From assembly GCF_964204645.1 (NCBI RefSeq), contig NC_134033.1:6888555-6952554 (forward strand): 64,000 nt of DNA, in the 5' to 3' direction. Source of the DNA: Tubulanus polymorphus (taxonomy: Eukaryota > Animalia > Nemertea). Under the pieces are notes generated by a model that did no database searches, had not been told where the DNA came from, and saw only the letters and a list, made by a program, of their open reading frames with translations. Position numbers and translations under genes: made by a program. This document shows, in pieces, positions 10,267 to 38,900 of this stretch. Within the stretch, counting starts at the first letter, position 1, and every line of letters starts with the position of its first letter.

Positions 10267-10267
10267 A

Positions 10268-12687: not shown

Positions 12688-12836
12688 GTATATATTTACA
12701 ACATTATTTCAATATTTATATTTGTATGAGTTAGATTTTTAAACATTAAAAGTGTTAGTAAAGTGTGATTGAAATAATACATAATTTAAATCATTGAACT
12801 TCTAAAATCAATTTTAATAACAATTTCAGTATTAAA

Positions 12837-16730: not shown

Positions 16731-16816
16731 TTTAAAAGAGCAGAAACAAGAGAGAATGATATTATGAACAGGATTATAACGTGTTAATCAAATTTTAATA
16801 AAAATATGTATTATAA

Positions 16817-17172: not shown

Positions 17173-17189
17173 GAAAATATGTAAAATAA

Positions 17190-17944: not shown

Positions 17945-17960
17945 TTTTTTCACTATATAA

Positions 17961-18317
17961 ATGAATATAACTGTTGGGCCGAGTATATGTTTTGGGTTTG
18001 ATTTTAAACATGAGAAAGAAATGAAATTCAACGTTAATGATGTAATTACACATATCAACAATATTGCATTTTCTAATGAAACGACATTTGAGTATGAAAC
18101 AACAATAGATAAAGAAACTTTAAATGTAGAAAAGATTACTAATTAAATTAGAGAATCTTTAAGATTTTATGAATTAGATGAAGATTTTATCATCGATGAT
18201 ATTAAAAAAATAATAATTGAAATATATACAAATGAAACTAGTAATGAAATAAATGTTGATTTAATCATCACTAAGATAACTAAATATTTTAATGATAGCA
18301 ATCTTTTTGATAAATAA
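17961..18317 (+). pseudogene. Hypothetical protein with one in-frame stop
   Basis: TATAAATG start; frame continues past TAA 18144 to TAA 18315-18317. Confidence 0.55.
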
Positions 18318-18539
18318 ATGAGTGATAATAAGTGGATAATAACTGGATTATATAATGGCGCATTACTATCAGTTGGAACTGTTGGTTATTCAATGGTACT
18401 AAAAAAAGTATTTAAAATGGGAAGTGTTAATGTTGATAGATTTGATATAAATGATATTTTAAAATTAACATTAGCAGTTACTTTATCTAATTTAACTATT
18501 GATTATTTGGAAAAACAAAGATATATTCCTCCCATATAA
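18318..18539 (+). CDS. Small hydrophobic (membrane) protein, 73 aa
   Basis: TAAATG start; two hydrophobic stretches. Confidence 0.7.
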   Translation: MSDNKWIITGLYNGALLSVGTVGYSMVLKKVFKMGSVNVDRFDINDILKLTLAVTLSNLTIDYLEKQRYIPPI

Positions 18540-18563
18540 ATACATAATTATTATACTAAATAA

Positions 18564-18986
18564 ATGGCTTCTGCAATTATAACTATTATATGATCGGCAA
18601 TTGTTGACGCTTTAGCATTTACTGGTGGTGGTTATTTATTCAAGCATATTGATAAAAATGGTTCATTAACAGAACAAAAAATACATAACTTAGCATTAGA
18701 GAAATATAATAAAGCAGCGGAAGAATATAGAGAAAAACGACAAAACTATATGGATTATATTAACAAGGAATTATATGATCAGAAGATTTCACATAGAGAT
18801 TTTCAATCAGTTGATGATGCAATGAGTTTATATAACGCGGTAACCAATAAAGAAAAATTACATCTATACAAACCTAAATTATCAGATTATTATACGCCAA
18901 GTAAAGAACAACAGAAATATGAAATAATTTGGATTTTAGGTGGAACAGTTATTGTTATATTTGTTGCTTATAAGTTTACTAATTAG
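18564..18986 (+). pseudogene. Membrane protein with N-terminal hydrophobic helix, coiled coil and C-terminal TM
   Basis: MASAIITII*SAIVDALAFTGGGYLF…HNLALEKY… joins ORF 18750-18986 across a frameshift. Confidence 0.7.
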
Positions 18987-19005
18987 TAATTTTTTTGCTA
19001 AATAA

Positions 19006-19440
19006 ATGGAAGATAAAGTTGATAATATTGATATTATTCCTCATGATATAAATAAAACTAAATTAAAAATATATTTAGAAAAACAAATATTAGAATTTGA
19101 AAGTGACTTAAAGATAAAAAAGAAAAAATATTTAAAAAGTAAAATTATATATTATTTGATTATAAGTGGTTCGGTTACAATTAGTTCTGTAATAACATTT
19201 CTAGCAATATTCAGCCCATTAACACCTTTAGCTATATCAATTGGCGTATTAGGATTAAATTCAAGTGTTTTAACTGGTATAAGTTCAAAATTAAATATAA
19301 AAAGTAATAAAGAAAAAATTAAAACTAATATAAAAGAAATTGATAAATTGAAGAATACACTAGAGTATATAATAAGTTTAAATGGCCGTATAACAGTTGA
19401 AGAACAAGATAAATTATTAAAAGAATTAATAAATTATTAA
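19006..19440 (+). CDS. Two-TM protein flanked by coiled coils, 144 aa
   Basis: Intact ORF; hydrophobic IIYYLIISGSVTISSVITFLAIF and LAISIGVLGLNSSVLTGI. Confidence 0.75.
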   Translation: MEDKVDNIDIIPHDINKTKLKIYLEKQILEFESDLKIKKKKYLKSKIIYYLIISGSVTISSVITFLAIFSPLTPLAISIGVLGLNSSVLTGISSKLNIKSNKEKIKTNIKEIDKLKNTLEYIISLNGRITVEEQDKLLKELINY

Positions 19441-19456
19441 TTTTTTAATTATATAA

Positions 19457-20770
19457 ATGGCAGAAGCTTTCCAATGTAATAAATCAATTAAATATAATAT
19501 TCCAGCAATAGATTTTAATAAAGATATTACATATAGAAATGAAGTTTTAAATTCATTAATTGATTTATATATTTATGTTACTGAAAGTAATAATTTTCAT
19601 GTAAAGATGGAAAATATATTTCATGTGTATACAATTAATTTCAAAAATTTAAATGAGGCAAAACAATGGTTATTAAAATCTAATATGAAGTATTGGCAGA
19701 ACCAATTAAATTTTGCTGTTTATTGCGCAACAACAGGATGTGGTATAAGTTGGAATGATCATTTAAACAAACCAAGTTTACCATTGATGTTATCACTTTT
19801 TAGATTTCATACATATTTTCAAATAAAATTAATATTAGATGAATTAGAATGTCCTTTACCAGGTTCAAAATATTTCAAAGAATTGAATAATAATATTAAT
19901 TTTTCTAAGTTTTATAAAATATGTAATGAATTTAATATTAATTCAAATAAAGATTTTAGAGCAAAAATTGGAACAATGGGTGGATTAGGAATATTGTATA
20001 CTAAAGAATTTGGAAAAATATTGACAAATTCAGATATAAGAACACTAAATTGGAATGAAATACCAAAATATTATAATAATATACAACAACAAAACAATAA
20101 TGGTTGGGTTAATTTCATTTTAGAAAATAGTGAAGGTTTTACTAAAGCTGGTATACAAAGAATAAATCAATCTATTAGAACTTATTTGATATGTATTTTA
20201 GGTGCGCAGGTTGAAACAAGATCCCCAATAATTGGAAATGATAACACTTCATTCGATGCGCAGAAACAATTCAAAGTATTATTTGAAGATTCAATTCATA
20301 ATGATAAAAATAGATCGATTCCGGAAAACATTGTAAGATATCAAAATTATTTAGATAAATCACATATTAGATTAAATAATTGTATAGGCCCTAATCTATT
20401 AATTATTTCTAATGATTTAGTATTAAAGATAGGAAACATAATTGGTTACAATAATCTAATTAAAACTGCAACAATAAATAATTCATTTGGATTAAATGAT
20501 ATAAATCAAAAGATTTTTACTGCTGCAAAATTAATGGAAGGTGAAAAAAATAAAAAACATATTCAATCAACAGAAACTAAAACTAAGAATATTAAATTAA
20601 ATAATGATTCTAAAATAAAAGATTACAATACATCAGAAAATATAAAAACTGATAATATTCAACATGATATAATTAAACTAAATGATGATAATAAATCCCA
20701 TGAAAATGCTAAATTAGCTTTAACTTGTATAGGAATTGTAATTGGAGGAATATTATATTTTAAATTTTAA
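19457..20770 (+). CDS. Polinton-associated protein with C-terminal membrane anchor, 437 aa
   Basis: Intact ORF; WQNQLNFAVYCATTGCGIS and FRFHTYFQI motifs; terminal LALTCIGIVIGGILYFKF. Confidence 0.85.
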   Translation: MAEAFQCNKSIKYNIPAIDFNKDITYRNEVLNSLIDLYIYVTESNNFHVKMENIFHVYTINFKNLNEAKQWLLKSNMKYWQNQLNFAVYCATTGCGISWNDHLNKPSLPLMLSLFRFHTYFQIKLILDELECPLPGSKYFKELNNNINFSKFYKICNEFNINSNKDFRAKIGTMGGLGILYTKEFGKILTNSDIRTLNWNEIPKYYNNIQQQNNNGWVNFILENSEGFTKAGIQRINQSIRTYLICILGAQVETRSPIIGNDNTSFDAQKQFKVLFEDSIHNDKNRSIPENIVRYQNYLDKSHIRLNNCIGPNLLIISNDLVLKIGNIIGYNNLIKTATINNSFGLNDINQKIFTAAKLMEGEKNKKHIQSTETKTKNIKLNNDSKIKDYNTSENIKTDNIQHDIIKLNDDNKSHENAKLALTCIGIVIGGILYFKF

Positions 20771-20785
20771 TTTTTTATTATATAA

Positions 20786-22408
20786 ATGGATGAAGAAATT
20801 CCATTGGATCCTTTAGATGAACCCGGTATAAGTGATGAACAACAACCTGATTTTAGTGAAACAAGTTTTAGTAATGATAATAAAACAGAATATAATACTA
20901 ATTCAGGTGAAGATGATGATTATGATGATGATTCCGAATTACGTGAAAAATTATATAAATATTTAAAAGCTCCTGAAATTAGTAGAATTTCAACTAGAAG
21001 AGAAAGAAAAGAATTTATGGAACTATTAGTAGAACAACAAGAAAAATATCCTGATAAACATATGGAATTATATAAAATGAAATCTAGAGTAACAGATACA
21101 ATTGTTAACGAATTATTACCAATAGTTGTAATACATGATATTGATACAGAAGGTGTTGTAGAACAAATTTTTAAAGATGACCCATATTTCACGAATAATT
21201 TAGAATTTAAAAATGATTCATGGTATTATAATGTTAATTTAAATAACAAAATTGTATTAATTCAATTATCTAAAATGGGTCAAGAAAATATTTTTGAACC
21301 TGAAATGTTAGCAAGATCTACAATTGAACGTTCAAAAGGTGGCAAAGAATTTCTCAGAATTATATGGAATGCACTCGATAGAATAAATAAAGAAGAACCA
21401 ATTCCTAATATTGATATAAACAAATATTCACCATTTAAAAATCCATTTAAAAATCCAAATCCAAATCCTACTGATGTTGATCCAGAAATATCGAGAAGAG
21501 ATATTCAACAAATTGATAATGATTTAAGTCAATTACAATTAGTATTAGAAGAACAAATTGATAGATTAAGAGATACAGAAGAAGAGATGATTAGTACTGG
21601 AATAAATCGAATGCAATCTTTACTAGAAAAAGGATTACTTGATTTAACTGATGAAGAATTAGAAGCATTTCCTGAACAAATACGTAGAGAAATTAAAGGT
21701 ATACAAGTATCAGCTGATGAAAATGCTAATATTAAGATGAGATTTTCTAAAATAACCATGTTAGAAAAAGAATTAGCTAATGCAGATGAAGAATTAAAAC
21801 AATTAGAATTAAATAGAGATCTTAAAGTAATTTATAAAGCTGATTATGAAAGCGGAAAGTTAGCTTTAGTAAAAGAAATAGATGATTTAAAATATAATAT
21901 AGAATTACAGAAAGAAGAAAGAGATACATTATTAAAATCATATGATCTTAATCATATTAAAAAATTAAAAGTTATTTTTAAAGATTTGTTGATTAAACCA
22001 AATTCTGAAATATCATTAAAAGACAGAATAAGATTATTATTTAAGTTAGAAGGTATAACAATTCTTTCAATTCTAACATCTGTAACTATGGTATTTACAG
22101 CAATTGGTTTAGCAATATCAAATGCTTTGAAATCTACTCCTACTCCCAATAAACCGGATAAACCCCCAGATAATTATTCTATACAAGATAAAGTTAAAGA
22201 TGGTTTAAAGAAATTAGCAAAATATTTATGGGAACTATCTAAAAAATTAGCTGCAGCATTACCAGGAATTATTGCATCAATTGTTGGTTTTATATTGAAA
22301 TCTGCAGGAAACATTATTAACTTTGCTGCGGAACATATTATTTTATTTTTAATTACAGTTGTAAGTGCTATTATTTTTGGTTTAGTAAACATGATAAAAA
22401 ATAAATAA
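20786..22408 (+). CDS. Acidic/coiled-coil protein with C-terminal TM helices, 540 aa (candidate virion membrane or entry protein)
   Basis: Intact ORF; heptad-rich middle; three hydrophobic segments at the C-terminus. Confidence 0.85.
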   Translation: MDEEIPLDPLDEPGISDEQQPDFSETSFSNDNKTEYNTNSGEDDDYDDDSELREKLYKYLKAPEISRISTRRERKEFMELLVEQQEKYPDKHMELYKMKSRVTDTIVNELLPIVVIHDIDTEGVVEQIFKDDPYFTNNLEFKNDSWYYNVNLNNKIVLIQLSKMGQENIFEPEMLARSTIERSKGGKEFLRIIWNALDRINKEEPIPNIDINKYSPFKNPFKNPNPNPTDVDPEISRRDIQQIDNDLSQLQLVLEEQIDRLRDTEEEMISTGINRMQSLLEKGLLDLTDEELEAFPEQIRREIKGIQVSADENANIKMRFSKITMLEKELANADEELKQLELNRDLKVIYKADYESGKLALVKEIDDLKYNIELQKEERDTLLKSYDLNHIKKLKVIFKDLLIKPNSEISLKDRIRLLFKLEGITILSILTSVTMVFTAIGLAISNALKSTPTPNKPDKPPDNYSIQDKVKDGLKKLAKYLWELSKKLAAALPGIIASIVGFILKSAGNIINFAAEHIILFLITVVSAIIFGLVNMIKNK

Positions 22409-22428
22409 TTAATTTATTTGTTAAATAA

Positions 22429-23677
22429 ATGAGTTGGAGTTATATCAATCCTTCTAAGAATCATAGAATATCTAATGCTATTAAAGCAGAAAAGATCACA
22501 TCATATAATTACTCATAACCCTTCTAATATTAATCCCGATGAAACTTTATATGTTAGAATTCCTAGATTAACACAAAATACTTTTTATGTTCCAAATAGT
22601 ATTTATTTATCAGCCGATATAAAAGTAATCGGTAATAATAATAATTATGTCGTTGATAATGTTGGAAGATATTTGATTAAAAAATTAACTATAAAGATTG
22701 GTCCAGAAACAGTTTTCTCATTAGATGATTATAATTTATTTATGCATTATAAAGATTTATGGTTAACTAAAGAAAATAGGAATAATATGATATTTCAAGG
22801 CATCCAATCAGAAAACCAAAATAAATTAAGATCAGAAGCTAATAGCGCAATATTAACTAATGCTGTAGATAAATTGATAAAAAGTATATATGGAATCAAA
22901 TATAAAATTCCATTAGACTTTGAATTGATAAATAACAATGCACCTTTATATAAATACGCAATTCAAGAAGACGTTATATTCGAAATAACATTTGCTCCTG
23001 TAAATGAAATTGCAATATCTAGCGTTAATAAAGATATGAGTTATAAATTATCGAATATATGTTTAGAATATGATACAGTAACTGATGAAAATATTTCAAG
23101 TATAATTCAAACTCAATACAATCAAGGATTTTCATTATTATATGATTATATTGATAAATTTAAAACTTTAACTATAAATCCAAATGATGAAATTATTAAT
23201 GAGAATATTAACTTCCCAAGAAGATCTATTAAAGGTATATTAATACTTTTTACCATTGCAACATATACTAATGGCGCAATAAATGTTGATAATTATTATA
23301 ATCCTGAAATAACAAAAGTAGAAATAACTATCGAGGGAATAGCAAATAAAATATTTTGTCAAGGAATGAGAATGATTGATCAATGGCCAGAAATTAGAAA
23401 ACATTTTATGAATGATAAAGTAAAATCATCTGAAAATTGTAACATTAATCAAATTGATTATTATACCGGTAATAAATATGCATTATGGTTAGATTTTAGA
23501 ACAACAGAGGATAATTCATTACATGGTTCTGGAAAAAAACTACAGAACACTAAAGATGGAATACAATTATTCATGACAAAGAATAAAGGAATCAAAAATT
23601 TTAAAATGCACATTTATATTATATCTGACGCACAATTAAATATTGTAAATTCTCAATTAAATAGTGTTATGTATTAG
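22429..23677 (+). pseudogene. Putative major capsid protein with +1 A frameshift near the N-terminus
   Basis: True start TAAATG at 22429; gcagaaaagatc versus gcagaaagatc at 7317; the remainder is open (ORF 22475-23677). Confidence 0.7.
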
Positions 23678-23709
23678 AATTTTAACTTTAATAAAAATTT
23701 ATATAATAA

Positions 23710-24564
23710 ATGGAAGGTGGTAAAGTATATAAACATATTCCATACATCGATACACATGAAAATAATGATGGTTTATATTATGTAATACCTTGTAATATGG
23801 CTTTGATATTTGATCCTATTTTCAAAATTTATAAAACTAAACTAATAGAAATCGATAATAATAAAAGTGAAGTTGTTGATAATTTAAGTAATGTAATTGA
23901 TAATAATGTAATACCTACTACATCTAATAATGTAATACCTTCTACATCTAATAATGCAATGCCTTCTACATCTAATAATGTAATACCTTCTACATCTAAT
24001 AATGTAATACCTTCTACGTCTAATAATGTAATACCTTCTACATCTAATAATGTAATAATATTAAATGTTAATGAAAATAGAAATTATTGTGGATATTGTA
24101 AAAGTGAATTTTCAAACGCTTCATCAAATTGGAATAAACATATGAAAACAAGGGTACATATAAATAATGTTATAGAACGTGTTGGTTTAAAAGAATTTAT
24201 AGAACACCCATTTAGATATGTTACAAAGTTTGTTTCAAATCAAAAAGTAAATGGTGAAAAAATATATGAAGATTTATTATTAGCAACACCTAATAAAGAT
24301 GAATTAGATATAACCGATGCTAATGAAATATTAGGATCAAACACTGTAAATGAAATATTAGGAGCAAACACTAATAAAGATTCTATGAAACATAAAGTAG
24401 AAAATAATGATAAATTTGATTGGATGAATAAGCATAACAATGAAACAACTATTGATGATTCGGTAAAAAGGATGAAAAAGTATAAAAATAATAAAGAATT
24501 TGAAGAAGAAAATTCGGTAGAGAATTTGAATAAATTGTTAGGGTCTGATAGTGAAAGTGATTAA
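23710..24564 (+). CDS. C2H2 zinc-finger protein with NNVIPSTS repeats, 284 aa
   Basis: CGYC…WNKHMKTRVH; 24-bp tandem repeat at ~23902-24056. Confidence 0.8.
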   Translation: MEGGKVYKHIPYIDTHENNDGLYYVIPCNMALIFDPIFKIYKTKLIEIDNNKSEVVDNLSNVIDNNVIPTTSNNVIPSTSNNAMPSTSNNVIPSTSNNVIPSTSNNVIPSTSNNVIILNVNENRNYCGYCKSEFSNASSNWNKHMKTRVHINNVIERVGLKEFIEHPFRYVTKFVSNQKVNGEKIYEDLLLATPNKDELDITDANEILGSNTVNEILGANTNKDSMKHKVENNDKFDWMNKHNNETTIDDSVKRMKKYKNNKEFEEENSVENLNKLLGSDSESD

Positions 24565-24594
24565 GATATTAATTATATTTAACTCAAAAAGTAA

Positions 24595-24955
24595 TAAAGG
24601 TTGAAAATTGTATAAAATAATAGTAAATAAAAAAGGGGGTTTTAAGTATTTAAGGTATCTAATACATATCTAATACATATCTTATACATATCTAATACAA
24701 TCTAATACATAAAATATCTTATTTTATAAACAGATATTCATATGGAAATTGAAACCTCAGTAATAATAAATAACCTTTATTATTTTCAAACTGATTCATA
24801 TATTAGTTGAAAAAATAAAAATAAATTGGTTGAAAATTGTATAAATAATATTTATTTTAAAAAAGGGGGTTTTAAGTATTCAAGGTATCTAATAGGGTAT
24901 CAGGTATTAGGGTATCTAATGGGGTATCAGGTATTAGGGCATCTAATACATAGGT
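24595..24955. repeat. Intergenic repeat block (GGTTGAAAATTGTATAAA…AAAAGGGGGTTTTAAGTA twice, plus TATCTAATAC/G units)
   Basis: Also present at ~29758-30110 and ~31124-31476. Confidence 0.75.
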
Positions 24956-24965
24956 ACACAAATAG

Positions 24966-25577
24966 TTATTTTACAAATTTATATTCATAGGGAAATTGTA
25001 ATCTCAGTAATAATTTTGAACCTTTATTATTCTTTAATTTATTCATATATTCATCATGTAATTCAGTAGGTATAATTTGATTTCCTTCCAATGATTGTTG
25101 CATAGATTTTTTATCTTTGTTATCAAATAAAACTAGAAATCTTATATTCTCCCTAAAGTCTTTAACAATTGAATTATATTTTTGATTTAAAACCCATGTT
25201 GTTATCCCAAAATGTCTCCCAGAGAAAGCTAGATAACATAACTCACTTTCTCTAACTTTTGAATCATGTAAATTTGCGCAATCATCTATAATGAATAATG
25301 TATTTGATCCTTTATAAGTATCAATTGCTATTTTAATACAATTATCTAAATTTCCTTTTACTGTTTTAGGATCTAATAAAATAAACTTTTTTATCTTAAC
25401 TATATCTCTATCATAAGTTTTATTCATTTCAGAAGTAGGACAGAATAATATTATATTATCAAAACGATTCTTATAAATAGTTTCTAACAAATCTAATATG
25501 AAATGTGTTTTACCACAATTGGTTACACCAGTAACTAACATATTATGCGGTTCAAATATAAATAAATCTTTATTCAT
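24966..25577 (-). CDS. A32-type packaging ATPase, intact, 203 aa
   Basis: GVTNCGKT, FIIDD and GRH motifs. Confidence 0.93.
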   Translation of the reverse strand: MNKDLFIFEPHNMLVTGVTNCGKTHFILDLLETIYKNRFDNIILFCPTSEMNKTYDRDIVKIKKFILLDPKTVKGNLDNCIKIAIDTYKGSNTLFIIDDCANLHDSKVRESELCYLAFSGRHFGITTWVLNQKYNSIVKDFRENIRFLVLFDNKDKKSMQQSLEGNQIIPTELHDEYMNKLKNNKGSKLLLRLQFPYEYKFVK

Positions 25578-26688
25578 TTATTCTTTTAATTTTACTAGAT
25601 AAAATCCATTCATTAAATTTATCATCATATCCTTTATATTTCACCAAAGAATACTTTTTTCCTTTAAGAGTTTTTGTTTTCAATACTTTTTCTATTTTGT
25701 ATTCTATTTCATCTGGACTTGGAACTAGTGATAATTCTTGTTCATAGAAATAACCTAATATTTGTTCGTCTTTTAAATCTTCTAATTTATAAACAAATGG
25801 TTTAGTTAATATTATCTTTTTAATCTTGAATATTTCTTCAGTAAAATTTGGGGTATAACCTTTATAAAATGTTTTTCTATATTTAGATATTCTGACGTGT
25901 TGTCCAATTTTGAATCTAGGTTCACCGAAATCATGTGTAACAAATGCTCCATATAAATTATTCCAAACTATTTCCGAATTATCTTCTTTTCTAGCTTGTA
26001 TAGGTTTCATATTTATAGAACTATGTTTAGAATTATTATAACCTTTCACTAAATCATCTAATACATCGATATATTTATATGTTTCATTAGCAGTAAAATA
26101 TTTCCACATTCTAGTTTTCAATGTTTTATTAAATCTTTCTATAATAGATGCTTTTTTATCTGAATGTGTTGAAAAATAATCTACATCGTTATCAGATAAT
26201 AGTTTTTTAAAATGTTTGTTATAGAATTCCTTACCTTCATCAAATTGTATCTTATCTGGAATAGCTTCTTTAAATATAGATTTAAAAGCATTTGTTACTT
26301 CTATTCCAGTTTTATTTTTGATTGGAATTGACCATGCGTATCGACTGAATATGTCTATAACATTTAATATCCAGAAATATCCTTTGTTGTATTCCTCTAA
26401 GTTCTTCATGTCAATTAAATCTGCTTGCCATTGTTGATCGATATATGAAACCATAACTTTTCTTGTTAAATAAGTTTTATCCATTTTCTTGTGTATTTGA
26501 TATGTTGGTTGATTTTGTAACCATGATTTTAATTCACTATATTTTATACCACCATGTGGGTGCCGTACGGCACCATCACCATTTTCATTATCAGATTTAA
26601 TTTTATTCCATAATTCTGAAACGTTAGAATATGATACTTCACTTTCTGGGTTATAATATAAATCATTTAAATATTGTTCTTTTTTCAT
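25570..26688 (-). CDS. rve integrase with C-terminal chromodomain, intact, 372 aa
   Basis: ADLIDM / IQFDEGKEF / SIIERFNKTLK triad; YKIEKVLKTKTLKGKKYSLVKYKGYDDKFNEWI. Confidence 0.95.
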   Translation of the reverse strand: MKKEQYLNDLYYNPESEVSYSNVSELWNKIKSDNENGDGAVRHPHGGIKYSELKSWLQNQPTYQIHKKMDKTYLTRKVMVSYIDQQWQADLIDMKNLEEYNKGYFWILNVIDIFSRYAWSIPIKNKTGIEVTNAFKSIFKEAIPDKIQFDEGKEFYNKHFKKLLSDNDVDYFSTHSDKKASIIERFNKTLKTRMWKYFTANETYKYIDVLDDLVKGYNNSKHSSINMKPIQARKEDNSEIVWNNLYGAFVTHDFGEPRFKIGQHVRISKYRKTFYKGYTPNFTEEIFKIKKIILTKPFVYKLEDLKDEQILGYFYEQELSLVPSPDEIEYKIEKVLKTKTLKGKKYSLVKYKGYDDKFNEWILSSKIKRINE

Positions 26689-26959
26689 CTTATTTTAATC
26701 CATTAATAATAATCTTGGTTTATTTTCAATGACTTTATCATTTAATTTATTTTCTGGTATAATAGGTTTATTGTCATTGTAATCATCTTTATCATTAGAT
26801 TTGAATTTTGATTTATATATTACACCGGATAATATAATAACTGTTACTAATCCAATTGCTGCTGAACATATTATTTTATTTCTATTTACAGTTGTAAGTG
26901 CAATTATTTTTGGGTTAGTAAACATGATAGAAAATAAATAATTAATTTTTTTTCTAAAT

Positions 26960-28847
26960 AATTGAGTGGGAGTTATATCAATCCTTCTAAGAATCATAGA
27001 ATATCTAATGCTATTAAAGCAGAAAAGATCACATCATATAATTACTCATAACCCTTCTAATATTAATCCCGATGAAACTTTATATGTTAGAATTCCGAGA
27101 TTAACACAAAATACTTTTTACGTTCCAAATAGTATTTTTTTATCAGCCGATATAAAAGTAATTGGTCATGATAATAATTATGTTGTTGATAATGTTGGAA
27201 GATATTTGATTAAAAAATTAACAATAAAGATTGGTCCAGAAACAGTTTTCTCATTAGATGATTATAATTTATTTATGCATTATAAAGATTTATGGTTAAC
27301 TAAAGAAAACAGAAATAATATGATATTTCAAGGCATCCAATCGGAAAACCAAAATAAATTAAGATCAGGAGCTAATGACGCAATAGTAACTCGTACCGCA
27401 GATAATTTGATAAAAAAGATTTATGGAAGCAAATATAAAATTCCATTAGACTTTGAATTGATAAATAATAATGCGCCTTTATATAAATACGCAATTCAAG
27501 AAGATGTTATATTCCAAATAACATTTGCTCCTGTTAATGAAATTGTAATATCTAGCGTTAATAAAGATATGGGTTATAAATTATCGAATATATGTTTAGA
27601 ATATGATACAGTTACTGATGAAAATATTTCAAGTATAATTCAAACTCAATACAATCAAGGATTTTCATTATTATATGATTATATTGATAAATTTAAAACT
27701 GTAACTATTAATGCAAATGATGAAATTATTAATGAGAATATTAACTTCCCAAGAAGATCTATTAAAGGTATATTAATATTTTTTACTATTGCAACATATA
27801 CTAATGGCGCAATAAATGTTGATAATTATTATAATCCTGAAATAACAAAAGTAGAAATAACTATCGAAGGAATAGCAAATAAAATATTTTGTCAAGGAAT
27901 GAGAATGATTGATCAATGGCCAGAAATTAGAAAACATTTTATGAATGAAAAAGTGAAATCATCTGAAAATTTTAATATTAATCAAATTGATTATTATACC
28001 GGTAATAAATATGCATTAAAACTCTTTCCATGCTAACTGTGACCGGACGACACAGTCTCCAGAACCCTTTGTTTTTGCGCGGTGTGGTGCCACGTCACAG
28101 GTGTTTGACCTACTTATCCCCTTACTGTCTAAATGGCAATGTATAAAGCTTATACGGCTTGTATGTATGCCTGGTAGTCCTGGCAACCCCAGGGACTTGT
28201 TTTTGAGTTCGCTGGCGGGTGTATGAATAAAATCAATGTAGGTCACGAAAGTCATTATCGGTGAATTGAGGTCAAGTTGTGTAAACAAAGTAGGGCAAAA
28301 TTGAAAGCTTTATAAATAGACACAGCGGCTGGTATACGGTGTCTATACATGATGCAGTGGATATAATGGAGATATATAGAGAGAATATGAAGCTGCAGTT
28401 AGGGGTAGGGGTACCCGAATGACCCGAAAGTAGGTCAAATTTTTTGTTGTTGATATTTTGGGGGCCCCTAACGACCCCAGAATAGCTAGATCATCAGAAA
28501 CAAGCTGAATCATCATATTTTAGTGTAGGGAAGCGTATTAGACCTACTCTAGAAGTTTGAGAACCCAATATTTTTTGAAAAAATTTTTTTTTCGAAATAT
28601 AAGTCGCAAAATCTCAGGATCCGGTTTTTAGGGAAGTCGCATGGAAAGAGATTTATGGTTAGATTTAAGAACAACAGAGGATAATTCATTACATGGTTCT
28701 GGAAAAAAATTACAGAACACTAAAGATGGAATACAATTATTCATGACAAAGAATAAAGGAATCAAAAATTTCAAAATGCACATTTATATTATATCTGACG
28801 CGCAATTAAATATTGTAAATTCTCAATTAAATAGTGTTATGTATTAA
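26960..28847 (+). pseudogene. Third putative MCP copy, interrupted by a MITE
   Basis: Close copy of 22429-23677 with the same +A frameshift; insertion at 28019-28653 splits YAL|WLD. Confidence 0.85.
28019..28653. mobile_element. 635-bp non-autonomous DNA transposon (MITE)
   Basis: TIR AAACTCTTTCCATGC / GCATGGAAAGAGATT (14/15); TA (or TTA) duplicated; the empty site gcattatgg is seen in the other MCP copies. Confidence 0.9.
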
Positions 28848-28879
28848 AATTTTAACTATAATAAAAATTTATATAATAA

Positions 28880-29755
28880 ATGGAAGGAGGTAAAGTATAT
28901 AAACATATTCCATACATCGATGCACATGAAAATAATGATGGTTTATATTATGTAATACCTTGTAATATAGCTTTGATATTTGATCCTATTTTCAAAATTT
29001 ATAAAACTAAACTAATAGAAATCGATAATAATAAAAGTTGTGTTGTTGATAATTTAAGTAATGTAATTGATAATAATGTAATACCTTCTACATCTAATAA
29101 TGTAATACCTACTACATCTAATAATGTAATACCTTCTACATCTAATAATGTAATACCTTCTACATCTAATAATGAAATAATATTAAATTTTAGTGAAAAT
29201 AGAAATTATTGTGGATATTGTAAAAGTGAATTTTCAAACGCTCCATCAAATTGGAATAAACATATGAATACAAGGGTACATATAAATAATGTTATAGAAC
29301 GTGTTGGTTTAAAAGAATTTATAGAACACCCATTTAGATATGTTACAAAGTTTGTTTCAAATCAAAAAGTAAATGGTAAAGAATTATATAAAGATTTATT
29401 ATTAGCAACACCTAATAAAGATGAATTAGATTTAACCGATGCTAATAAAATATTAGAATCAAACACTGTAAATGAAATATTATGAGCAAACACTAATAAA
29501 GATAATAATGAAAATGCTGCCGTATGGCACCAACATGGCGATATAGTTACAGGAAAGCGCATTGATAATAAAGATTCTATGAAACTTAAATCAGAAAATA
29601 AAGATATAGTTGAGATGACTAATAATTATATCAATAAACCAATTATTTATGAAGATACGGTAGGGCATTTGAATAAATTGTTAGGGTCTGATGATGAATT
29701 GGAGAGTGATGATGAAAGTGATTCAGAAAGTAATTATCTAACACTCAAAAAGTAA
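28880..29755 (+). pseudogene. Second C2H2 zinc-finger/NNVIPSTS gene copy with nonsense at 29483
   Basis: Near-identical to 23710 over the first ~200 codons; fewer 24-bp repeats; extra 72-bp in-frame segment. Confidence 0.85.
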
Positions 29756-32256
29756 TAAAGGTTGAAAATTGTATAAAATAATAGTAAATAAAAAAGGGGG
29801 TTTTAAGTATTAAGGTATCTAATACGTATTAAATACATATCTAATACATATCTAATACGTATTATTTGAAAATACCTTAAATTACATTTCTTTTTTAAAT
29901 TTATATTGAAACCTCAGTAATAATAAATAACCTTTATTATTTTCAAACTTATTCATATATTAGTTGAAAAAATAAAAATAAATTGGTTGAAAATTGTATA
30001 AATAATATTTATTTTTAAAAAGGGGGTTTTAAGTAATTAAGGTATCTAATAAGGTATCAGGTATTAGGGTATCTAATATGGTATCTAATAGGGTATCTAA
30101 TACATAGGTATATTTTAAACATATTTCAATATTTATATTTGTATGAGTTAGATTTTTAAACATTAAAAGTGTTAGTAAAGTTTTATTGAAATAATTCATA
30201 TATATTCATGAATAACATATAAATGAATAACTTCTAAAATCAATTTAGTAAAAAAATATGTATAATAAATGGAACCAGAACAACCACAAACTATAAATAT
30301 TACAAATAACACTGGTGTCATAAACATATACTACAAGAAGTGTTCTAAATGTGAATTAGATAAATTAGCTTTAACAGAATTTAGTAAGCGTAAGATTAGT
30401 AAAGATGGTTTTCAATATTGCTGTAAAACTTGTACTAAACTATATACCAAACAATATCGAGAGGATAATATAGAACATTATAATTATTATATGGCAGAAT
30501 ATATGAGAGAAAGATATAAAACAGATCTTAATTTTAGACTGAAACAATGCTTAAGATCTAGATTAACACAATTATTCAACAAAGAAACACATTTAGAAAC
30601 ACTATCTAATTTATTCGGTTGTTCAGATGAATTTTTCATATCATGGATAATATATCAATTCGATGATAAAATGAATATAGATAATTATGGTGAATACTTT
30701 CATATTGCATGTGTTGCCGATTTCTAAATTTGACATGAGTGATGATTATAATAAGAAGCTAATATGGAATTGGAAGAATCTAAGACCTTTAGAAAAGAAG
30801 GAAAACATAATTAAATCTAACAAACTAGATTTACAGTTATATTTAGATCAACTGGATAAAGCAAAGACATTTGTTGAATTATGGAACTCATGGCACCAAC
30901 ATGGCGATATAGTTACAGGAAAGCGCATTGATAATAAAGATTCTATGAAACTTAAATCAGAAAATAAAGATATAGTTGAGATGACTAATAATTATATCAA
31001 TAAACCAATTATTTATGAAGATACGGTAGGGCATTTGAATAAATTGTTAGGGTCTGATGATGAATTGGAGAGTGATGATGAAAGTGATTCAGAAAGTAAT
31101 TATCTAACACTCAAAAAGTAATGAAGGTTGAAAATTGTATAAAATAATAGTAAATAAAAAAGGGGGTTTTAAGTATTAAGGTATCTAATACGTATTAAAT
31201 ACATATCTAATACATATCTAATACGTATTATTTGAAAATACCTTAAATTACATTTCTTTTTTAAATTTATATTGAAACCTCAGTAATAATAAATAACCTT
31301 TATTATTTTCAAACTTATTCATATATTAGTTGAAAAAATAAAAATAAATTGGTTGAAAATTGTATAAATAATATTTATTTTTAAAAAGGGGGTTTTAAGT
31401 AATTAAGGTATCTAATAAGGTATCAGGTATTAGGGTATCTAATATGGTATCTAATAGGGTATCTAATACATAGGTATATTTTAAACATATTTCAATATTT
31501 ATATTTGTATGAGTTAGATTTTTAAACATTAAAAGTGTTAGTAAAGTTTTATTGAAATAATTCATATATATTCATGAATAACATATAAATGAATAACTTC
31601 TAAAATCAATTTAGTAAAAAAATATGTATAATAAATGGAACCAGAACAACCACAAACTATAAATATTACAAATAACACTGGTGTCATAAACATATACTAC
31701 AAGAAGTGTTCTAAATGTGAATTAGATAAATTAGCTTTAACAGAATTTAGTAAGCGTAAGATTAGTAAAGATGGTTTTCAATATTGCTGTAAAACTTGTA
31801 CTAAACTATATACCAAACAATATCGAGAGGATAATATAGAACATTATAATTATTATATGGCAGAATATATGAGAGAAAGATATAAAACAGATCTTAATTT
31901 TAGACTGAAACAATGCTTAAGATCTAGATTAACACAATTATTCAACAAAGAAACACATTTAGAAACACTATCTAATTTATTCGGTTGTTCAGATGAATTT
32001 TTCATATCATGGATAATATATCAATTCGATGATAAAATGAATATAGATAATTATGGTGAATACTTTCATATTGCATGTGTTGCCGATTTCTAAATTTGAC
32101 ATGAGTGATGATTATAATAAGAAGCTAATATGGAATTGGAAGAATCTAAGACCTTTAGAAAAGAAGGAAAACATAATTAAATCTAACAAACTAGATTTAC
32201 AGTTATATTTAGATCAACTGGATAAAGCAAAGACATTTGTTGAATTATGGAACTCA
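29525..32256 (+). repeat. Tandem duplication of a 1366-bp unit (29525-30890, 30891-32256)
   Basis: Identical ORFs at 30269 and 31635; junction ggaactca|tggcaccaac. Confidence 0.95.
30269..30890 (+). pseudogene. NCLDV/phage-type HNH endonuclease with N-terminal CxxC…CxxC, copy 1
   Basis: KTDLNFRL…LRSRL…GCS…YQF…M…NYG…FHI[D]HVLPIS.FD…W.NLRPL…EN..KSNK; 2-bp deletion in HIDH. Confidence 0.75.
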
Positions 32257-32286
32257 ACACATAATGAAAAATACGTTGAATGTTAA
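31635..32286 (+). pseudogene. NCLDV/phage-type HNH endonuclease, copy 2 (native 3' end)
   Basis: Same sequence and same frameshift as copy 1. Confidence 0.75.
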
Positions 32287-32787
32287 ACGCTTAGAAAACC
32301 GGCTACTCTCGATCTATGTCAAACCGCCTGTATGTAATTGTATTAGGTTGTTTACAAAAGCATCTGTCGCACGTTATATTCAGTTGAATAGGGTGTATCT
32401 CATTTGAATATTGATCGAATGTGCTATTTCAGTTGAAAAGGATTAATCAATAACATTACAAAGGAACATCTGTTGCACCAGACAGTGTTTAGCTAGTGAA
32501 TACCTGGCAGTTATAAACGCGTACGGCACCCACATGGTGATATCAAATAGAATTTAAATAAAATATAATAAAAAAACAATAACTTCAACTAGCTAGTGAA
32601 TTCTATTATATTTTTAATATTTTCTTTTCAAAAAAGAATACTTTATATTTTGAATAGATTCAAATAGAAATTCTTTAAATTCAAATAGCTAGTATCAGTA
32701 GTCAATACTAGAATTCTTTAGCTTTAACTAGCTAGTATCATTTGAAGAATACTTATAATATTTTTTTGCTTTTTTTCTATAATATAA

Positions 32788-33390
32788 ATGTCAAAGAAAT
32801 CTAATAAGAATAATGCCGATATTGAAAAGACATTAGATGATTTGGGTATAAGTGATAATAAAGATACAGTTGTTTCTAATTCTATTCAAGTTAATAACAA
32901 TATTGATTATGAATACTATTTATATTGTAAACACCATCTAGAATTATTAATTGCTAGTGGTAAATGTAATCAGTTTATCGGGAAAATTTTAACTTATCAA
33001 GAACTAGTTGCTATGAAACCCGATAAAGTAATAAAATATTTTAAGATTTATGAAGAGGCAAGATTAGCCCGAATAAACGACTCTATAAGTGATGGTATTG
33101 TCAAATGTTATTCTAAGTTATGTAACCGGTTAATACCAATTGATGATGAAAATAAATTATATAGTGATTTAAAAAATGACTATTTAGTTATGACTGAATT
33201 ACAAAAATGGGTTGGTTATGCTTCATTTCAATTAGGATCGGTAATGACTTTAATTTCTACTGGCGTCATAACATTTTCCAACATCAAGCCTATGGAATAT
33301 AAATCAGGTAAGAACGAAACAGATGTACTACAACCAATCAGTAAAACAGAAAATGAATCAGAACAAAAATTAACTAAAATAAATGAGTGA
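32788..33390 (+). CDS. Conserved hypothetical Polinton protein, 200 aa
   Basis: Intact ORF; TATAAATG start; homologue at 10475. Confidence 0.8.
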   Translation: MSKKSNKNNADIEKTLDDLGISDNKDTVVSNSIQVNNNIDYEYYLYCKHHLELLIASGKCNQFIGKILTYQELVAMKPDKVIKYFKIYEEARLARINDSISDGIVKCYSKLCNRLIPIDDENKLYSDLKNDYLVMTELQKWVGYASFQLGSVMTLISTGVITFSNIKPMEYKSGKNETDVLQPISKTENESEQKLTKINE

Positions 33391-33754
33391 TGGCGTTAAG
33401 AAAAAGGCTAGATCCGAAAAACAAATTAAATGGGCAAGAGAATTAGGTAAAAGATCTTCAGAATTAAAAAAAGCTAAGAAAAAGAAATTAACTGATATTA
33501 ATGAATCACAGACTTTATCTGATATTGATTCAAATAATAATCCATCTGATTCTTCTAATGCTGGAAGTAATAATTACTTATATATTACAATTGGATTAGT
33601 TACAGTTATCATATTCTCTGGTGTAATATATAAATATAAGTATAAATCTGATTATAACAATAATGATTCCAATGATAATAAACCTATTATACCAGAAAAT
33701 AAGACAAATCATAAAGTCATTGAAACTAAATCTAAATTATTATTAATGGATTAA
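33383..33754 (+). CDS. Basic N-terminal, single-TM protein, 123 aa
   Basis: K/R-rich N-terminus; TM YLYITIGLVTVIIFSGVIY; its tail is duplicated on the minus strand at 26695-26858. Confidence 0.75.
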   Translation: MSDGVKKKARSEKQIKWARELGKRSSELKKAKKKKLTDINESQTLSDIDSNNNPSDSSNAGSNNYLYITIGLVTVIIFSGVIYKYKYKSDYNNNDSNDNKPIIPENKTNHKVIETKSKLLLMD

Positions 33755-33760
33755 AATAGA

Positions 33761-34873
33761 ATGAAAAAAGAACAATATTTAAGAGAGTTATATTACAACC
33801 CAGAAAGTGAAGTATCATATTCTAATGTTTCAGAATTATGGAATACAATTAAATCTGATAATGAAAATGGTGCCGTACGGCACCCACATGGTGATATAAA
33901 ATATAGTGAATTAAAATCATGGTTACAAAATCAACCAACATATCAAATACACAAGAAAATGGATAAAACTTATTTAACAAGAAAAGTTATGGTTTCATAT
34001 ATTGATCAACAATGGCAAGCAGATTTAATTGACATGAAGAACTTAGAGGAATACAACAAATGATATTTCTGGATATGAAATGTTATACACATATTCAGTA
34101 GATACGCATGGTCAATTCCAATCAAAAATAAAACTGGAATAGAAGTGACAAATGCTTTTAAATCAATATTTTAAGAAGCTATTCCAGATAAGATACAATT
34201 TGATGAAGGTAAGGAATTTTATAACAAACATTTTAAAAAACTATTATCTGATAACGATGTAGATTATTTTTCAACACACTCAGATAAAAAAGCATCTATA
34301 ATAGAAAGATTTAATAAAACATTGAAAACTAGAATGTGGAAATATTTTACTGCTAATGAAACATATAAATATATCGATGTATTAGATGATTTAGTGAAAG
34401 GTTATAATAATTCTAAACATAGTTCTATAAATATGAAACCTATACAAGCTAGAAAAGAAGATAATTCGGAAATAGTTTGGAATAATTTATATGGAGCGTT
34501 TGTTACGCATGATTTTGGTGAACCAAGATTTAAAATTGGACAACACGTCAGAATATCTAAATATAGAAAAACATTTTATAAAGGTTATACCCCTAATTTT
34601 ACAGAAGAAATATTTAAAATTAAAAAGATAATATTAACTAAACCTTTTGTTTATAAACTAGAAGATCTAAAAGATGAAGAAATATTAGGTTATTTCTATG
34701 AACAAGAATTATCACTTGTACCAAATCCAGATGAAATCGAATACAAAATAGAAAAAGTATTGAAAACAAAAACTCTTAAAGGAAAAAAGTATTCTTTGGT
34801 GAAATATAAAGGATATGATGATAAGTTTAATGAATGGAGTTTATCTAGTAAAATTAAAAGAATAAATGAATAA
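33761..34873 (+). pseudogene. rve integrase plus chromodomain with nonsense mutations
   Basis: Close copy of 25570-26688; stops at ~34061, ~34076 and ~34172. Confidence 0.92.
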
Positions 34874-35492
34874 AGATTTATTCATATTCGAACCGCATAA
34901 TATGTTAGTTACTGGAGTAACAAACTGTGGTAAAACACATTTCATATTAGATTTGTTAGAAACTATTTATAAGAATCATTTTGATAATATAATATTATTT
35001 TGTCCTACTTATGAAATGAATAAAACATATAATAGAGATATAGTTAATATAAAAAAGTTTATTATATTAGATCCTAAAACAGTAAAAGAAAATTTAGATA
35101 ATTGTATAATTGTATATATATTGACGATTACAATTGATACTTATAAAGGATCAAATACATTATTCATTATAGATGATTGCGCTAATTTACATGATTCAAA
35201 AGTGAGAGAAAGTGAGTTATGTTATCTAGCTTTCTCTGGAAGACATTTTGGGATAACAACATGGGTTTTAAATCAAAAATATAATTCAATTGTTAAAGAC
35301 TTTAGGGAGAATATAAGATTTCTAGTTTTATTCTACAATAAAGATAGAAAATCTATGCAACAATCATTGGAAGAAAATCAAATTATACCTACTGAATTAC
35401 ATGATGAATATATGCATAAATTAAAGAATAATAAAGGTTCAAAATTATTACTGAGACTACAATTTCCCTATGAATATAAGTTTATAAAATAA
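34866..35492 (+). CDS. A32-type packaging ATPase, 208 aa (5-aa in-frame insertion)
   Basis: Walker A and B intact; IIVYILTITIDTY versus IKIAIDTY in the inverted copy. Confidence 0.88.
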   Translation: MNKDLFIFEPHNMLVTGVTNCGKTHFILDLLETIYKNHFDNIILFCPTYEMNKTYNRDIVNIKKFIILDPKTVKENLDNCIIVYILTITIDTYKGSNTLFIIDDCANLHDSKVRESELCYLAFSGRHFGITTWVLNQKYNSIVKDFRENIRFLVLFYNKDRKSMQQSLEENQIIPTELHDEYMHKLKNNKGSKLLLRLQFPYEYKFIK

Positions 35493-35525
35493 CTGTTTAT
35501 AAATCTATTCTATAAGAGCTTACAT

Positions 35526-35987
35526 TTTTATATTGAATAATCTGTCAATTTAAATGTTATTCATATAAATGATTATTTTAAGAGTAATAGGGATAATAGG
35601 CTTTCAGGTTAAAGGTTGAATGGTCGAGTTCATTAAAAACAAAACATTAAAAGTAATTTAAAACTATAATATATTTTCATAACCGTGTGTATTTCAGTTG
35701 AATAATAGAATAATTATTATTATTAAAATATATTTGATTATATGAATTTGTGCATTGTAAATAAATCAATTGGTCGCGGAGCGGAGCGGTAGCGAAGTGG
35801 AGCGACCACTTGATTTAATACAATATGCTTTTTAGATTATTGATATCTTAGAATAAATATTTAGTTATAATATAAAATACACACGGTTATGAAAATATAT
35901 TATAGTTTTAAATTACTTTTAATGTTTTGTTTTTTAATGAGCTCGACCGTTCGACCTTTGGCTTGAAAGCCTATTATCCCTATTACT
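35526..35987. repeat. Right TIR of element B (self-complementary 35583-35694 / 35875-35987, GC stem-loop 35762-35817)
   Basis: Reverse complement of the left TIR; ends CCCTATTACT. Confidence 0.95.
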
Positions 35988-38900
35988 AAACATCTTTTCT
36001 CGCGCTGAACGACGTTTTCAGGTCGAAAAGTGCTTTTCCTGACGATTTGAGCGCTTTTACGCATCGACATTGTCGTTTTTCCGATACGGGGAATATTTGA
36101 TACGAAAACGTCTTCTCTCGCGCTGAACGACGTTTTCGGGTCGAAAAGGTCCTTTCCTGACGATTTGAGCGCTTTTACGCATCGACATTGTCGTTTTTCC
36201 GATATGGGGAATATTTGATACGACAACGTCTTTTCTCGCACTGAACGACGTTTTCGTGTCGAAAAGCTCTTTCCTGACGATTTGAGCGCTTTTACGCATC
36301 AACACTGTCGTTTTTTCCGATATGGGGAATATTTGATACGAAAACGTTTTTTCTCGCGCTGAACGACGTTTGCGGGTCGAAAAGCGCTTTTCCTGGCGAT
36401 TTGAGCGCTTTTACGCATCGACATTGTCGTTTTTCCGATATTGAGAATATTTGATACGAAGACGTCTTTTCTCGCGCTGAACGACGTTTTCGTGTCGAAA
36501 AGCTCTTTTCCTGGCGATTTGAGCGCTTTTACGCATCGACATTTTCCTTTTCCCGATAGGGCAATATTTGTTACGAAAACGTCTTTTCTCGCGCTGAACG
36601 ACGTTTTCGGATCGAAAAACGCTTTTCCTGACGATTTGAGCGCTTTTACGCATCGGCATTGTCGTTTCCGATAGGGGGTATATTTTCGATACGAAAACGT
36701 CTTTTCTCGCGCTGAACGACGTTTTCGGGTCGAAAAGCGCTTTTCCTGACGATTTGAGCGCTTTTACGCATCGACATTGTCGTTTTTTCCGATAGTGGAA
36801 TATTTGATACGAAGACGTCTTTTCTCGCGCTGAACGACGTTTTCGTGTCGAAAAGCTCGTTTCCTGGCGATTTGAGCGCTTTTACGCATCGACATTATCC
36901 TTTTCCCGATAGGGGAATATTTGATACGAAAACGTCTTTTCTCGCGCTAAACGACGTTTTCGTGTCGAAAAGCGCTTTTCCTGACGATTTGAGCGCTTTT
37001 ACGCATCGAAATTGTCGTTTTTCCGATAGGGGGAATATTCGATACGAAAACGTCTTTTCTCGCGCTGAACGACGTTTTCGGGTCGAAAAGCGCTTTTCCT
37101 GACGATTTGAGCGCTTTTACGCATCGGCATTGTCGTTTTTTCCGATAGGGGGAATATTCGATACGAAAACGTCTTTTCTCGCGCTGAACGACGTTCTCGG
37201 GTCGAAAAGCGCTTTTCCTGACGATTTGAGCGCTTTTACGCATCGGCATTGTCGTTTTTCCGATAGGGGGAATATTCGATACGAAAACGTCTTTTCTCGC
37301 GCTGAACGACGTTTTCGGGTCGAAAAGCGCTTTTCCTGACGATTTGAGCGCATCGGCATTGTCGTTTCCGATAGGGGGTATATTTTCGATACGAAAACGT
37401 CTTTTCTCGCGCTGAACGACATTTTTAGGTCGAAAAGCTCTTTTCCTGACGATTTGAGCGTTTTTACGCATCGACACTGTCGTTTTTTCGATATGGGGAA
37501 TATTTGATACGAAAACGTTTTTTCTCGCGCTGAACGACGTTTGCGGGTCGAAAAGCTTCTCCTGACGATTTGAGCGCTTTTACGCATCGGGATTGTCGTT
37601 TTTCCGATATGGGGAATATTTGATACGAAAAAGTCTTTTCTCGCGCTGAACGACGTTTTCGTGTCGAAAAGCTCATTTCCTGACGATTTGAGCGCTTTTA
37701 CGCATCGACATTGTCGTTTTTCCGATATGGGGAATATTTGATACGAAAACATCTTTTCTCGCGCTGAACGACGTTTTCGGGTCGAAAAGCTCTTTTCCTG
37801 GCGATTTGAGCGCTTTTACGCATCGACATTGTCGTTTTTCCGATATGGAGAATATTTGATACGAAGACGTCTTTTCTCGCGCTGAACGACGTTTTCGTGT
37901 CGAAAAGCTCTTTTCCTGGCGATTTGAGCGCTTTTACGCATCGACATTTTCCTTTTCCCGATAGGGCAATATTTGTTACGAAAACGTCTTTTCTCGCGCT
38001 GAACGACTTTTCGGATCGAAAAGCGCTTTTCCTGACGATTTGAGCGCTTTTACGCATCGGCATTGTCGTTTCCGATAGGGGGTATATTTTCGATACGAAA
38101 ACGTCTTTTCTCGCGCTGAACGACGTTTTCGGGTCGAAAAGCGCTTTTCCTCACGATTTGAGCGCTTTTACGCATCGACATTGTCGTTTTTCCGATAGGG
38201 GGAATATTCGATACGAAAACGTCTTTTCTCGCGCTGAACGACGTTTTCGTGTCGAAAAGCGGTTTTCCTGACGATTTGAGCGCTTTTACGCATCGACATT
38301 TTCCTTTTCCCGATAGGGGAATATTTGATACGAAAACGTCTTTCCTCGCGCTGAACGACATTTTCGTGTCGAAAAGTGCTTTTCCTGACGATTTGAGCGC
38401 TTTTACGCATCGACATTGTCGTTTTTCCGATAGGGGGAATATTCGATACGAAAACGTCTTTTCTCGCGCTGAACGACGTTTTCGGGTCGGAAAGTGCTTT
38501 TCCTGACGATTTGAGCGCTTTTACGCATCGGCATAGTCGTTTTTCCGATAGGGGGTATATTTTCGATACGAAAACGTCTTTTCTCGCGCTGAACGACGTC
38601 TTCGCGTCGAAAAGTGCTTTTCCTGACGATTTGAACGCTTTTACGCATCGACATTGTCGTTTTTTTGATAGGGGGAATATTCGATACGAAAACGTCTTTT
38701 CTCGCGCTGAACGACGTTTTCGCGTCGAAAAGTGCTTTTCCTGACGATTTGAGCGCTTTTACGTATCGACTTTGTCGTTTTTCCGATAGGGGGAATATTC
38801 GAAAAGAAAACGTCTTTTCTCGCGCTGAACGACGTTTTCGCGTCGAAAAGTGCTTTTCCTGACGATTTGAGCGCTTTTACGCATCGACATTGTCGTTTTT

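Follow-up and report, generated by a model that had tools for sequence, protein, structure and literature searches.

A fold-back within the terminal inverted repeats of a nemertean Polinton carries G-T pairs on the strand with the 3' terminus

What might a Polinton do with a terminus that folds back on itself? The standing model for these elements, a panhandle of the whole element combined with protein priming, reportedly goes back to Kapitonov and Jurka in 2006, and we know of no experimental demonstration of Polinton excision or of the start of replication. The panhandle and protein-priming model is summarised in 10.64898/2026.07.28.741278. Here, we analysed a 64,000-nucleotide stretch of Tubulanus polymorphus DNA (the window), in which both terminal inverted repeats (TIRs) of such an element contain their own tip twice, and asked which step in the life of the element a hairpin of this kind could serve.

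The element is a 23.7-kb Polinton/Maverick with a 5-bp TSD, placed in a 118-bp satellite (Table 1). We found a pPolB, an rve integrase, an A32 packaging ATPase and TIRs bordered by a TSD within the 5–8 bp range of the group, in a copy that is decayed and internally duplicated. DNA_pol_B_2 was matched only in pieces and below the cut-off, the pPolB gene being broken in this copy, and the Capsid_N match of the likely major capsid protein (E 0.0097) also stayed below the cut-off in a profile scan. A scan of the 28 ORFs of this decayed, rearranged copy gave no match to an adenovirus-like maturation protease, and no HUH Rep/NS1 nickase was detected in these 28 ORFs, an HNH domain being present instead. 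Its interior includes an inverted duplication of the integrase-ATPase block (24960–26858 and 33588–35498, 94% identity), a tandem duplication of 1367 bp at 29524–32256 (99.9% identical) and a capsid-like gene present twice, at 22475 and 26966. Elsewhere in the window, 5581–11577 and 1–382 hold pieces of further copies of the same Polinton family, the satellite spans 35988–64000 and 12082–12276 with at least 236 copies, and a 344-bp palindrome (3069–3581, 88%) is unrelated to the TIR and shows no G-T strand bias.

Table 1 Coordinates of the element, its genes and its terminal features within the window.
Feature	Coordinates	Strand	Remark
Polinton/Maverick element	12277..35987	.	internally rearranged
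5-bp TSD, left copy	12272..12276	+	inside 118-bp satellite
5-bp TSD, right copy	35988..35992	+	
Left TIR	12277..12692	+	about 54 nt of central stem-loop missing
Left outer arm	12277..12389	+	
Left inner arm	12519..12630	-	two private A-C changes
Right TIR	35521..35987	-	extends about 60 nt inward past inner arm
Right inner arm	35583..35694	+	
Central stem	35763..35816	+	three overlapping GCG(N)1-2AGC mini-hairpin motifs at 35776, 35781, 35786
Right outer arm	35875..35987	-	in the + strand fold, 3' end flush with inner AGT
Neighbouring copy end	1..382	+	interior flank, inner arm, central motifs; broken off before outer arm
Third inner arm, neighbouring copy	164-274	.	
pPolB N-terminal open frame	13192..14832	+	remaining gene in pieces to about 16024
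Likely major capsid protein	22475..23677	+	Capsid_N weak, under cut-off
A32 packaging ATPase	24966..25577	-	PF04665 above cut-off
rve integrase with chromodomain	25570..26688	-	PF00665 above cut-off
A32 ATPase, second copy	34866..35492	+	reads toward right TIR

The terminal 113 nt are present twice, inverted, in both TIRs, and a third inner arm occurs in a neighbouring copy. This agrees with the initial annotation of the locus, except that the left inner arm begins at 12519 rather than 12518. The two arms align over 113 columns with 93.8% identity in the right TIR and 92.0% in the left, with one 1-nt indel each. In the predicted fold, the …ATTACT 3' end comes to lie flush on the inner arm as a primer-template junction, as had been proposed, with pairing that stops exactly at the end of the DNA, and all ends in the window (3/3) are in one orientation. 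Folding of both strands, which the annotation had suggested as a check, placed all four strands far beyond shuffled sequences (z-scores −20.8 to −23.8), with the 3'-terminal strand folding better at both ends (−124.0 vs −115.6 and −101.3 vs −94.7 kcal/mol); the gap is about 7% with DNA energies and 12–14% with RNA energies, both strands folding strongly. No Rfam match to the fold-back was found. The panhandle of the whole element, at −408 kcal/mol, is far more stable than the two local hairpins together (−229 kcal/mol), and the argument for a role of the hairpins is therefore kinetic, in that they would act first rather than last.

Six substitutions are common to both TIRs, and every one is a transition that forms a G-T pair on the 3'-terminal strand (6/6, with zero transversions), just as the annotation had stated; in the right TIR these pairs are 35607/35963, 35609/35961, 35610/35960, 35617/35953, 35621/35949 and 35629/35941. 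The left inner arm has two private changes, both A-C on the 3'-terminal strand, in line with the earlier description of them as incompatible with G-T pairing. Three control inverted repeats from the window, the first being the internal inverted duplication of the element itself, gave G-T, A-C and transversion counts of 25:24:44, 83:75:187 and 6:5:10, compared with 6:0:0 for the arms. A run of 6/6 G-T pairs has a chance probability of 0.03 at 50:50 and of about 8e-4 against the spectrum of the internal duplication. Because the control inverted repeats are unbiased and rich in transversions, the G-T pattern of the arms is not general to this DNA.

Further copies of the family were followed in raw genomic reads labelled as this species (12% of run X6), which cover the TIR at a depth of about 1000–3700. 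At the outer tip, 2380 reads end with heterogeneous flanks (agreement 0.34–0.36), indicating that the family has many insertions, and since these flanks are heterogeneous, targeting to the satellite is not evident. Read variants were assessed among the best-supported 40 of 171, in reads that are not independent and that leave the inner and outer arms of one copy unphased. Within this set, six site pairs are mirrored between inner and outer arms (35593/35977, 63/57%; 35598/35972, 52/52%; 35608/35962, 21/41%; 35645/35924, 78/29%; 35686/35883, 21/26%; 35690/35879, 25/57%), and the frequency surplus within a pair yields G-T in 5/6, neither class in 1/6 and A-C in 0/6. The pattern is that of compensatory change with G-T as the intermediate step, or of repair between the arms that leaves G-T in place, and the strand bias thus holds in the read variants, where the annotation had proposed to look for it across copies. 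The private A-C changes of the left arm are absent among the same 40 of 171 variants.

The reads also bear on the neighbouring copy with its inner arm at 164, which the annotation had credited with two additional wobbles. This copy has three G-T-compatible substitutions relative to the outer arm of the present element, rather than two, its own outer arm being missing. The first two are probably G-C pairs and not wobbles, because the reads show both changes mirrored in outer arms at similar frequency (the first two pairs listed above), and these wobbles are therefore better taken as probable Watson-Crick pairs. The neighbouring copy ends within the central motif and is followed by a 31-bp tandem repeat, whose unit is similar to the central stem sequence.

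Some variants stand outside the pattern. Among the best 40 of 171, a T>C change at 35938 (about 24%), with no visible partner, would give A-C, and pair-breaking variants with no visible partner were seen at 35963 (T>A), 35621 and 35624 (T>G), 35637, 35910 and 35936; at 35607/35963, the wobble T is kept in only about 40% of outer reads. Unpartnered variants fall partly where a second subfamily with a different inner sequence maps. This subfamily (reads at 35618–35629 and 35931–35952) shares only the terminal 40–57 nt and apparently has a shorter fold-back of different arm sequence. In joints from 7–21 reads, a short stretch, in some cases an 11-bp stem, separates the first 36–47 nt of the inner arm from the outer arm, showing that shorter fold-backs exist in the family, and the read joints also show that loop length differs among copies. 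Over the whole stretch, the kinds of change are symmetric (A>G at 31 places, T>C at 28, C>T at 17 and G>A at 18), so the general one-strand signal that one-sided deamination, named in the annotation as a competing cause, would leave is not seen. As a sole cause, deamination of one strand is disfavoured by this symmetry, toward which mirrored changes in the arms also push.

Two proposals of the annotation concerned the inner AGT at 35583, namely parvovirus-like self-priming alongside the protein-primed panhandle and the release of mini-elements of 350–400 bp. Flipped ends and solo mini-elements would each show as loose ends at this position, and the six loose ends with the most support (239 reads or more, compared with 2380 at the outer end) include none there. 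Read depth fell from 2000 on the inner AGT to 1660 just inside it. At 35609, 35617 and 35629, letters of the outer type were absent among the best 40 of 171 variants, the weakest of which had 225 reads. If the lists are ranked by support, each of the two forms lies below about 10–13%. Mini-element release is not borne out by these reads, with room for rare copies, and hairpin transfer as the normal route is likewise disfavoured, both by the lack of flipped ends among the best-supported rows and by a protein set that keeps the terminal-protein domain and has no HUH Rep in its 28 ORFs. Opposite-strand joints at mirrored positions occurred in 16 and 5 reads, and may be rare inversions of the spacer or library chimeras.

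Within the 405 nt of the fold-back, the GCG(N)1-2AGC motif occurs three times, enclosed by the central stem, on the 3'-terminal strand and never on the other strand, with 0.01 expected. These belong to the class of GC-GNA-GC DNA mini-hairpins, described as extraordinarily stable in DNA and much weaker in RNA (PMC13037366), and by this likeness the central motifs, which lie outside the energy model, would fold as mini-hairpins. They are missing from the left TIR of this copy, and a deletion like that of the left TIR occurs in 16 reads (joint 35766>35821). Outside the central stem, the two halves of the spacer gave no convincing alignment to each other.

We then examined more distant Polintons. 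Searches with the polymerase fetched 75 loci. The scan took in 63 of them, with an upstream stretch of 400 nt or more in 52, the element end being mostly not locatable. A flush terminal fold-back upstream of pPolB was found at 3/52 loci: L087, with a 129-nt fold-back, an AGTAGT start and gene-free DNA upstream; L128, with a fold-back of 125 nt; and L124, both ends of which were recovered in L187, with 247-bp TIRs and 2/2 ends in the same orientation. The termini of L087 and L128 are putative, since their far ends lie off the contigs. Counts of G-T pairs on the 3'-terminal vs the 5'-terminal strand were 5:0, 1:0, 1:0 and 0:0 (L087, L128 and the L124/L187 ends), the 3'-terminal strand folds better in 4/4 of these ends, and GCGAG-type loop motifs lie on the 3'-terminal strand in L128 and L187, not in L087. 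The polymerases of these elements are only 25–27% identical (best segment) and their end sequences are unrelated, and the strand preference that the annotation had suggested seeking in related species thus recurs in distant Polintons with terminal fold-backs. The fold-back is real and conserved, and the data support a hairpin that would be specific to the 3'-terminal single strand. It is not universal in Polintons, as seen from the 3/52 loci and from L151, whose AGT-type end lacks a full fold-back and whose hairpin near pPolB is internal.

Wider scans were otherwise negative. An exact scan for the end motif found no stretch in either viral or metagenome contigs, and the sole match in a fold-back pattern scan of viral contigs, L179, was attributed to chance (z −0.1, phage-like genes). 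Anchoring on the ATPase gave 0 loci in viral contigs and 80 in metagenomes, none of which had a TIR homologous to the present one or a similar fold-back at the terminus. L089 has, 1.4 kb ahead of a pPolB, an insert of 600 nt (1475–2088) that is bounded by terminal inverted repeats and contains internal hairpins; this insert sits within a 169-bp tandem repeat and was not taken for a Polinton end. Close relatives have AT-rich hairpins directly after the ATPase stop codon (L001:3033–3105, L005:3554–3636 and L006:1624–1706), which recall the giant-virus rule of 3' hairpins at transcript ends. Polinton-type pPolB contigs also turned up in many bacterial and archaeal MAGs (L081–L135), probably as eukaryotic contamination.

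The N-terminal frame of pPolB (model with mean pLDDT 81) combines a terminal-protein fold, a G-S122-G motif, vOTU-type Cys188 and His287, and an HNH/endonuclease VII-like domain at 482–515. In the model, residues 17–137 form a sheet with two helices, and the best structural hits were Y-family polymerases (E 0.003–0.02, none <0.001), the match reported for the TP domain (PMC11161782). In an alignment of 105 rows, Ser122 is conserved in 96%, lying between glycines in a loop ahead of the last strand of the N-terminal domain; the HNH residues C482, C485, H499, H501 and C514 are invariant (105/105), and Cys188 and His287 are nearly or fully so. The relatives are full-length pPolBs, and those with names come from animals (28–34% identity). 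Because Ser122 and the TP fold are kept, protein priming appears to be retained in this polymerase clade, with an HNH nuclease that would be available. An HNH-bearing pPolB has been described (10.1101/2023.08.22.554363).

Our preferred reading, to which we assign a probability of roughly 45%, is that the 3'-terminal strand, when single-stranded, folds into a hairpin that provides protein-primed initiation with a local duplex end signal. Once displaced or excised, a strand would snap back at its 3' end within about 400 nt, before the 24-kb panhandle could form, and the local duplex end would be read by the TP-pPolB and possibly by the integrase. The polymerase would start on the terminal base and displace the inner arm, so that one orientation is kept; A-C pairs on the 3'-terminal strand would be purged by selection or arm-to-arm repair and G-T pairs tolerated, with self-primed extension from the same junction as a side reaction. 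We favour this reading because the 3' strand alone suffices, one orientation is kept, no nickase is needed and the terminal protein is retained. Flush geometry, strand bias, mirrored changes, motifs on the same strand and one orientation in most copies speak for a duplex end signal; the modest strand gap, the motif-less left TIR, the unphased and dependent reads and the unpartnered variants speak against it.

Self-priming as the main route, in which the flush 3'-OH would be extended into hairpin-closed or dimer forms that the HNH domain of the polymerase resolves asymmetrically, is in our estimate unlikely. The primer-template geometry is exactly the one needed, the nuclease residues are invariant, and asymmetric resolution would keep one orientation; a parallel is the left end of certain parvoviruses, and parvoviral ends in one form only and asymmetric dimer resolution are known (PMC8242256, PMC1185569). 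In a protein-primed system, a folded-back 3' end was extended in vitro (PMC4513846), hairpin priming has been proposed for virophage/PLV ends (10.64898/2026.07.28.741278), and the opposite-strand joints would be of the expected kind, unless they are library chimeras. Symmetric transfer, however, predicts about half flipped ends, with G-T turned into A-C, far above the limit set by the reads; this rarity does not by itself dismiss self-priming, because some parvoviral ends keep one form. Also standing against self-priming are the lack of an HUH Rep among the 28 ORFs and the retention of the TP fold, its serine and the vOTU residues, along with a GSGW motif that is kept in the pPolB of L087, L124 and L128. 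A hybrid route in this Polinton branch, with self-priming from a G-T-tolerant eared hairpin and asymmetric HNH resolution operating beside protein priming, seems to us rather unlikely; under it, the fixed arm differences would be a parvovirus-like asymmetry that keeps one end orientation.

The fold-back could instead be a functionless by-product of copy-back synthesis, its arms held alike by conversion and its G-T pairs either missed by hairpin repair or produced by deamination, an explanation we find improbable. A copy-back event ends flush by construction, conversion accounts for the mirrored changes as well as selection does, one-strand C>T and A>G changes yield exactly these wobbles, and copies differ in the length of the loop; a lean of 8:4 toward these changes among interior variants, with one more ambiguous, is not significant. 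However, neither the change kinds nor the control inverted repeats show a strand skew, the same architecture and strand preference occur in distant Polintons with unrelated ends, and the mini-hairpin motifs on the same strand are left unexplained.

A substrate for excision or integration, presenting a duplex end with a host flap or a free 3'-OH to the rve integrase or the HNH domain, is quite improbable as the primary role, although it would be compatible with a duplex end signal for initiation. In strand transfer by rve integrases, only the 3'-terminal strand needs a duplex end; pairing here ends exactly at the terminus, the outer ends are joined to host DNA and Polinton excision lacks an explanation, but an ordinary duplex end can also serve integration. 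Finally, an RNA hairpin in outward transcripts through the TIR (a silencing trigger or terminator in which G-U is favoured) is highly improbable, for although the G-T strand carries an ATPase gene directed at the right TIR and the strand gap grows with RNA energies (−205.0 vs −175.7), the pairing ends with the last base of the DNA, the motifs in the loop are of DNA type and Rfam gave no match.

A conserved hairpin confined to the 3'-terminal strand would have several consequences. That it occurs at four end sequences with no relation to one another argues for a genuine single-stranded intermediate, a short synthetic substrate could separate protein priming, self-priming and cleavage by HNH or integrase, and a job is suggested for the unexplained HNH insert of these polymerases. 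VSR endonuclease nicks T:G mismatches. Some pPolB2 have a VSR domain where others have HNH (10.1101/2023.08.22.554363), and G-T-rich end hairpins would be of interest in those elements.

In gene content, the element matches Polintons/Mavericks (adintoviruses) with an HNH-bearing pPolB, sharing the TP, vOTU and HNH domains of the polymerase, the rve integrase, the A32 ATPase and a likely capsid gene, as well as TIRs of the usual size, a 5-bp TSD and AGT-type ends; its pPolB2/Beta assignment is by the HNH domain, not by a tree. Accounts of Polintons treat end motifs for jump-back priming and TIR lengths, and their available text describes neither a fold-back in the TIR nor strand-biased G-T pairs (10.1101/2023.08.22.554363, PMC8502044, PMC8097293, PMC11161782). 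The accessible parts of PMC11296320 and PMC12220804 likewise describe no Polinton end hairpins, and 'hairpin' in the available text of bioRxiv 10.1101/2022.05.25.493380 denotes protein structure only. In the full-text literature, subscription papers and Repbase reports lying outside this scope, our searches brought up no account of pPolB Polintons whose TIRs fold back with a strand bias.

The nearest precedent is a July 2026 preprint on virophage/PLV ends in Halocafeteria seosinensis, where TIR palindromes beside the TSD were proposed to prime by hairpin (10.64898/2026.07.28.741278). A palindrome within the TIR adjoining the TSD is common to both; the H. seosinensis palindromes, 52 nt in the example, preferentially accompany non-pPolB replication genes (10.64898/2026.07.28.741278), whereas here a pPolB with the TP serine goes with 113-nt arms, a 180-nt spacer, G-T bias and mirrored changes. 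Parvovirus ends (AAV ITR, and the left end of MVM and bocavirus) resemble this terminus in their flush 3' fold-back, eared hairpin and arm asymmetry, but belong to ssDNA genomes with an HUH nickase (PMC11575299, PMC8242256, PMC1185569). In AAV, hairpin transfer inverts the hairpin and gives flip and flop ends (PMC11575299); flip/flop of this type was not seen in the window ends, and the L187 ends share one orientation. At Streptomyces telomeres, protein-primed synthesis takes place on a folded 3' strand with GCA loops, its rabbit-ear hairpins are closed by sheared G-A pairs, the terminal palindrome pairs with an inner copy, and self-extension arises in vitro as a side product (PMC4513846). GNA-loop motif sequences on the 3' strand are common to the typical Streptomyces telomere and this element. 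In these bacteria, Tap and Tpg patch overhangs of about 300 nt at the ends, with replication from an internal origin (PMC4513846). The likeness is functional, with homology not expected. A hairpin confined to the 3'-terminal strand would tie Polinton ends, by convergence, to both Streptomyces telomeres and parvovirus ends.
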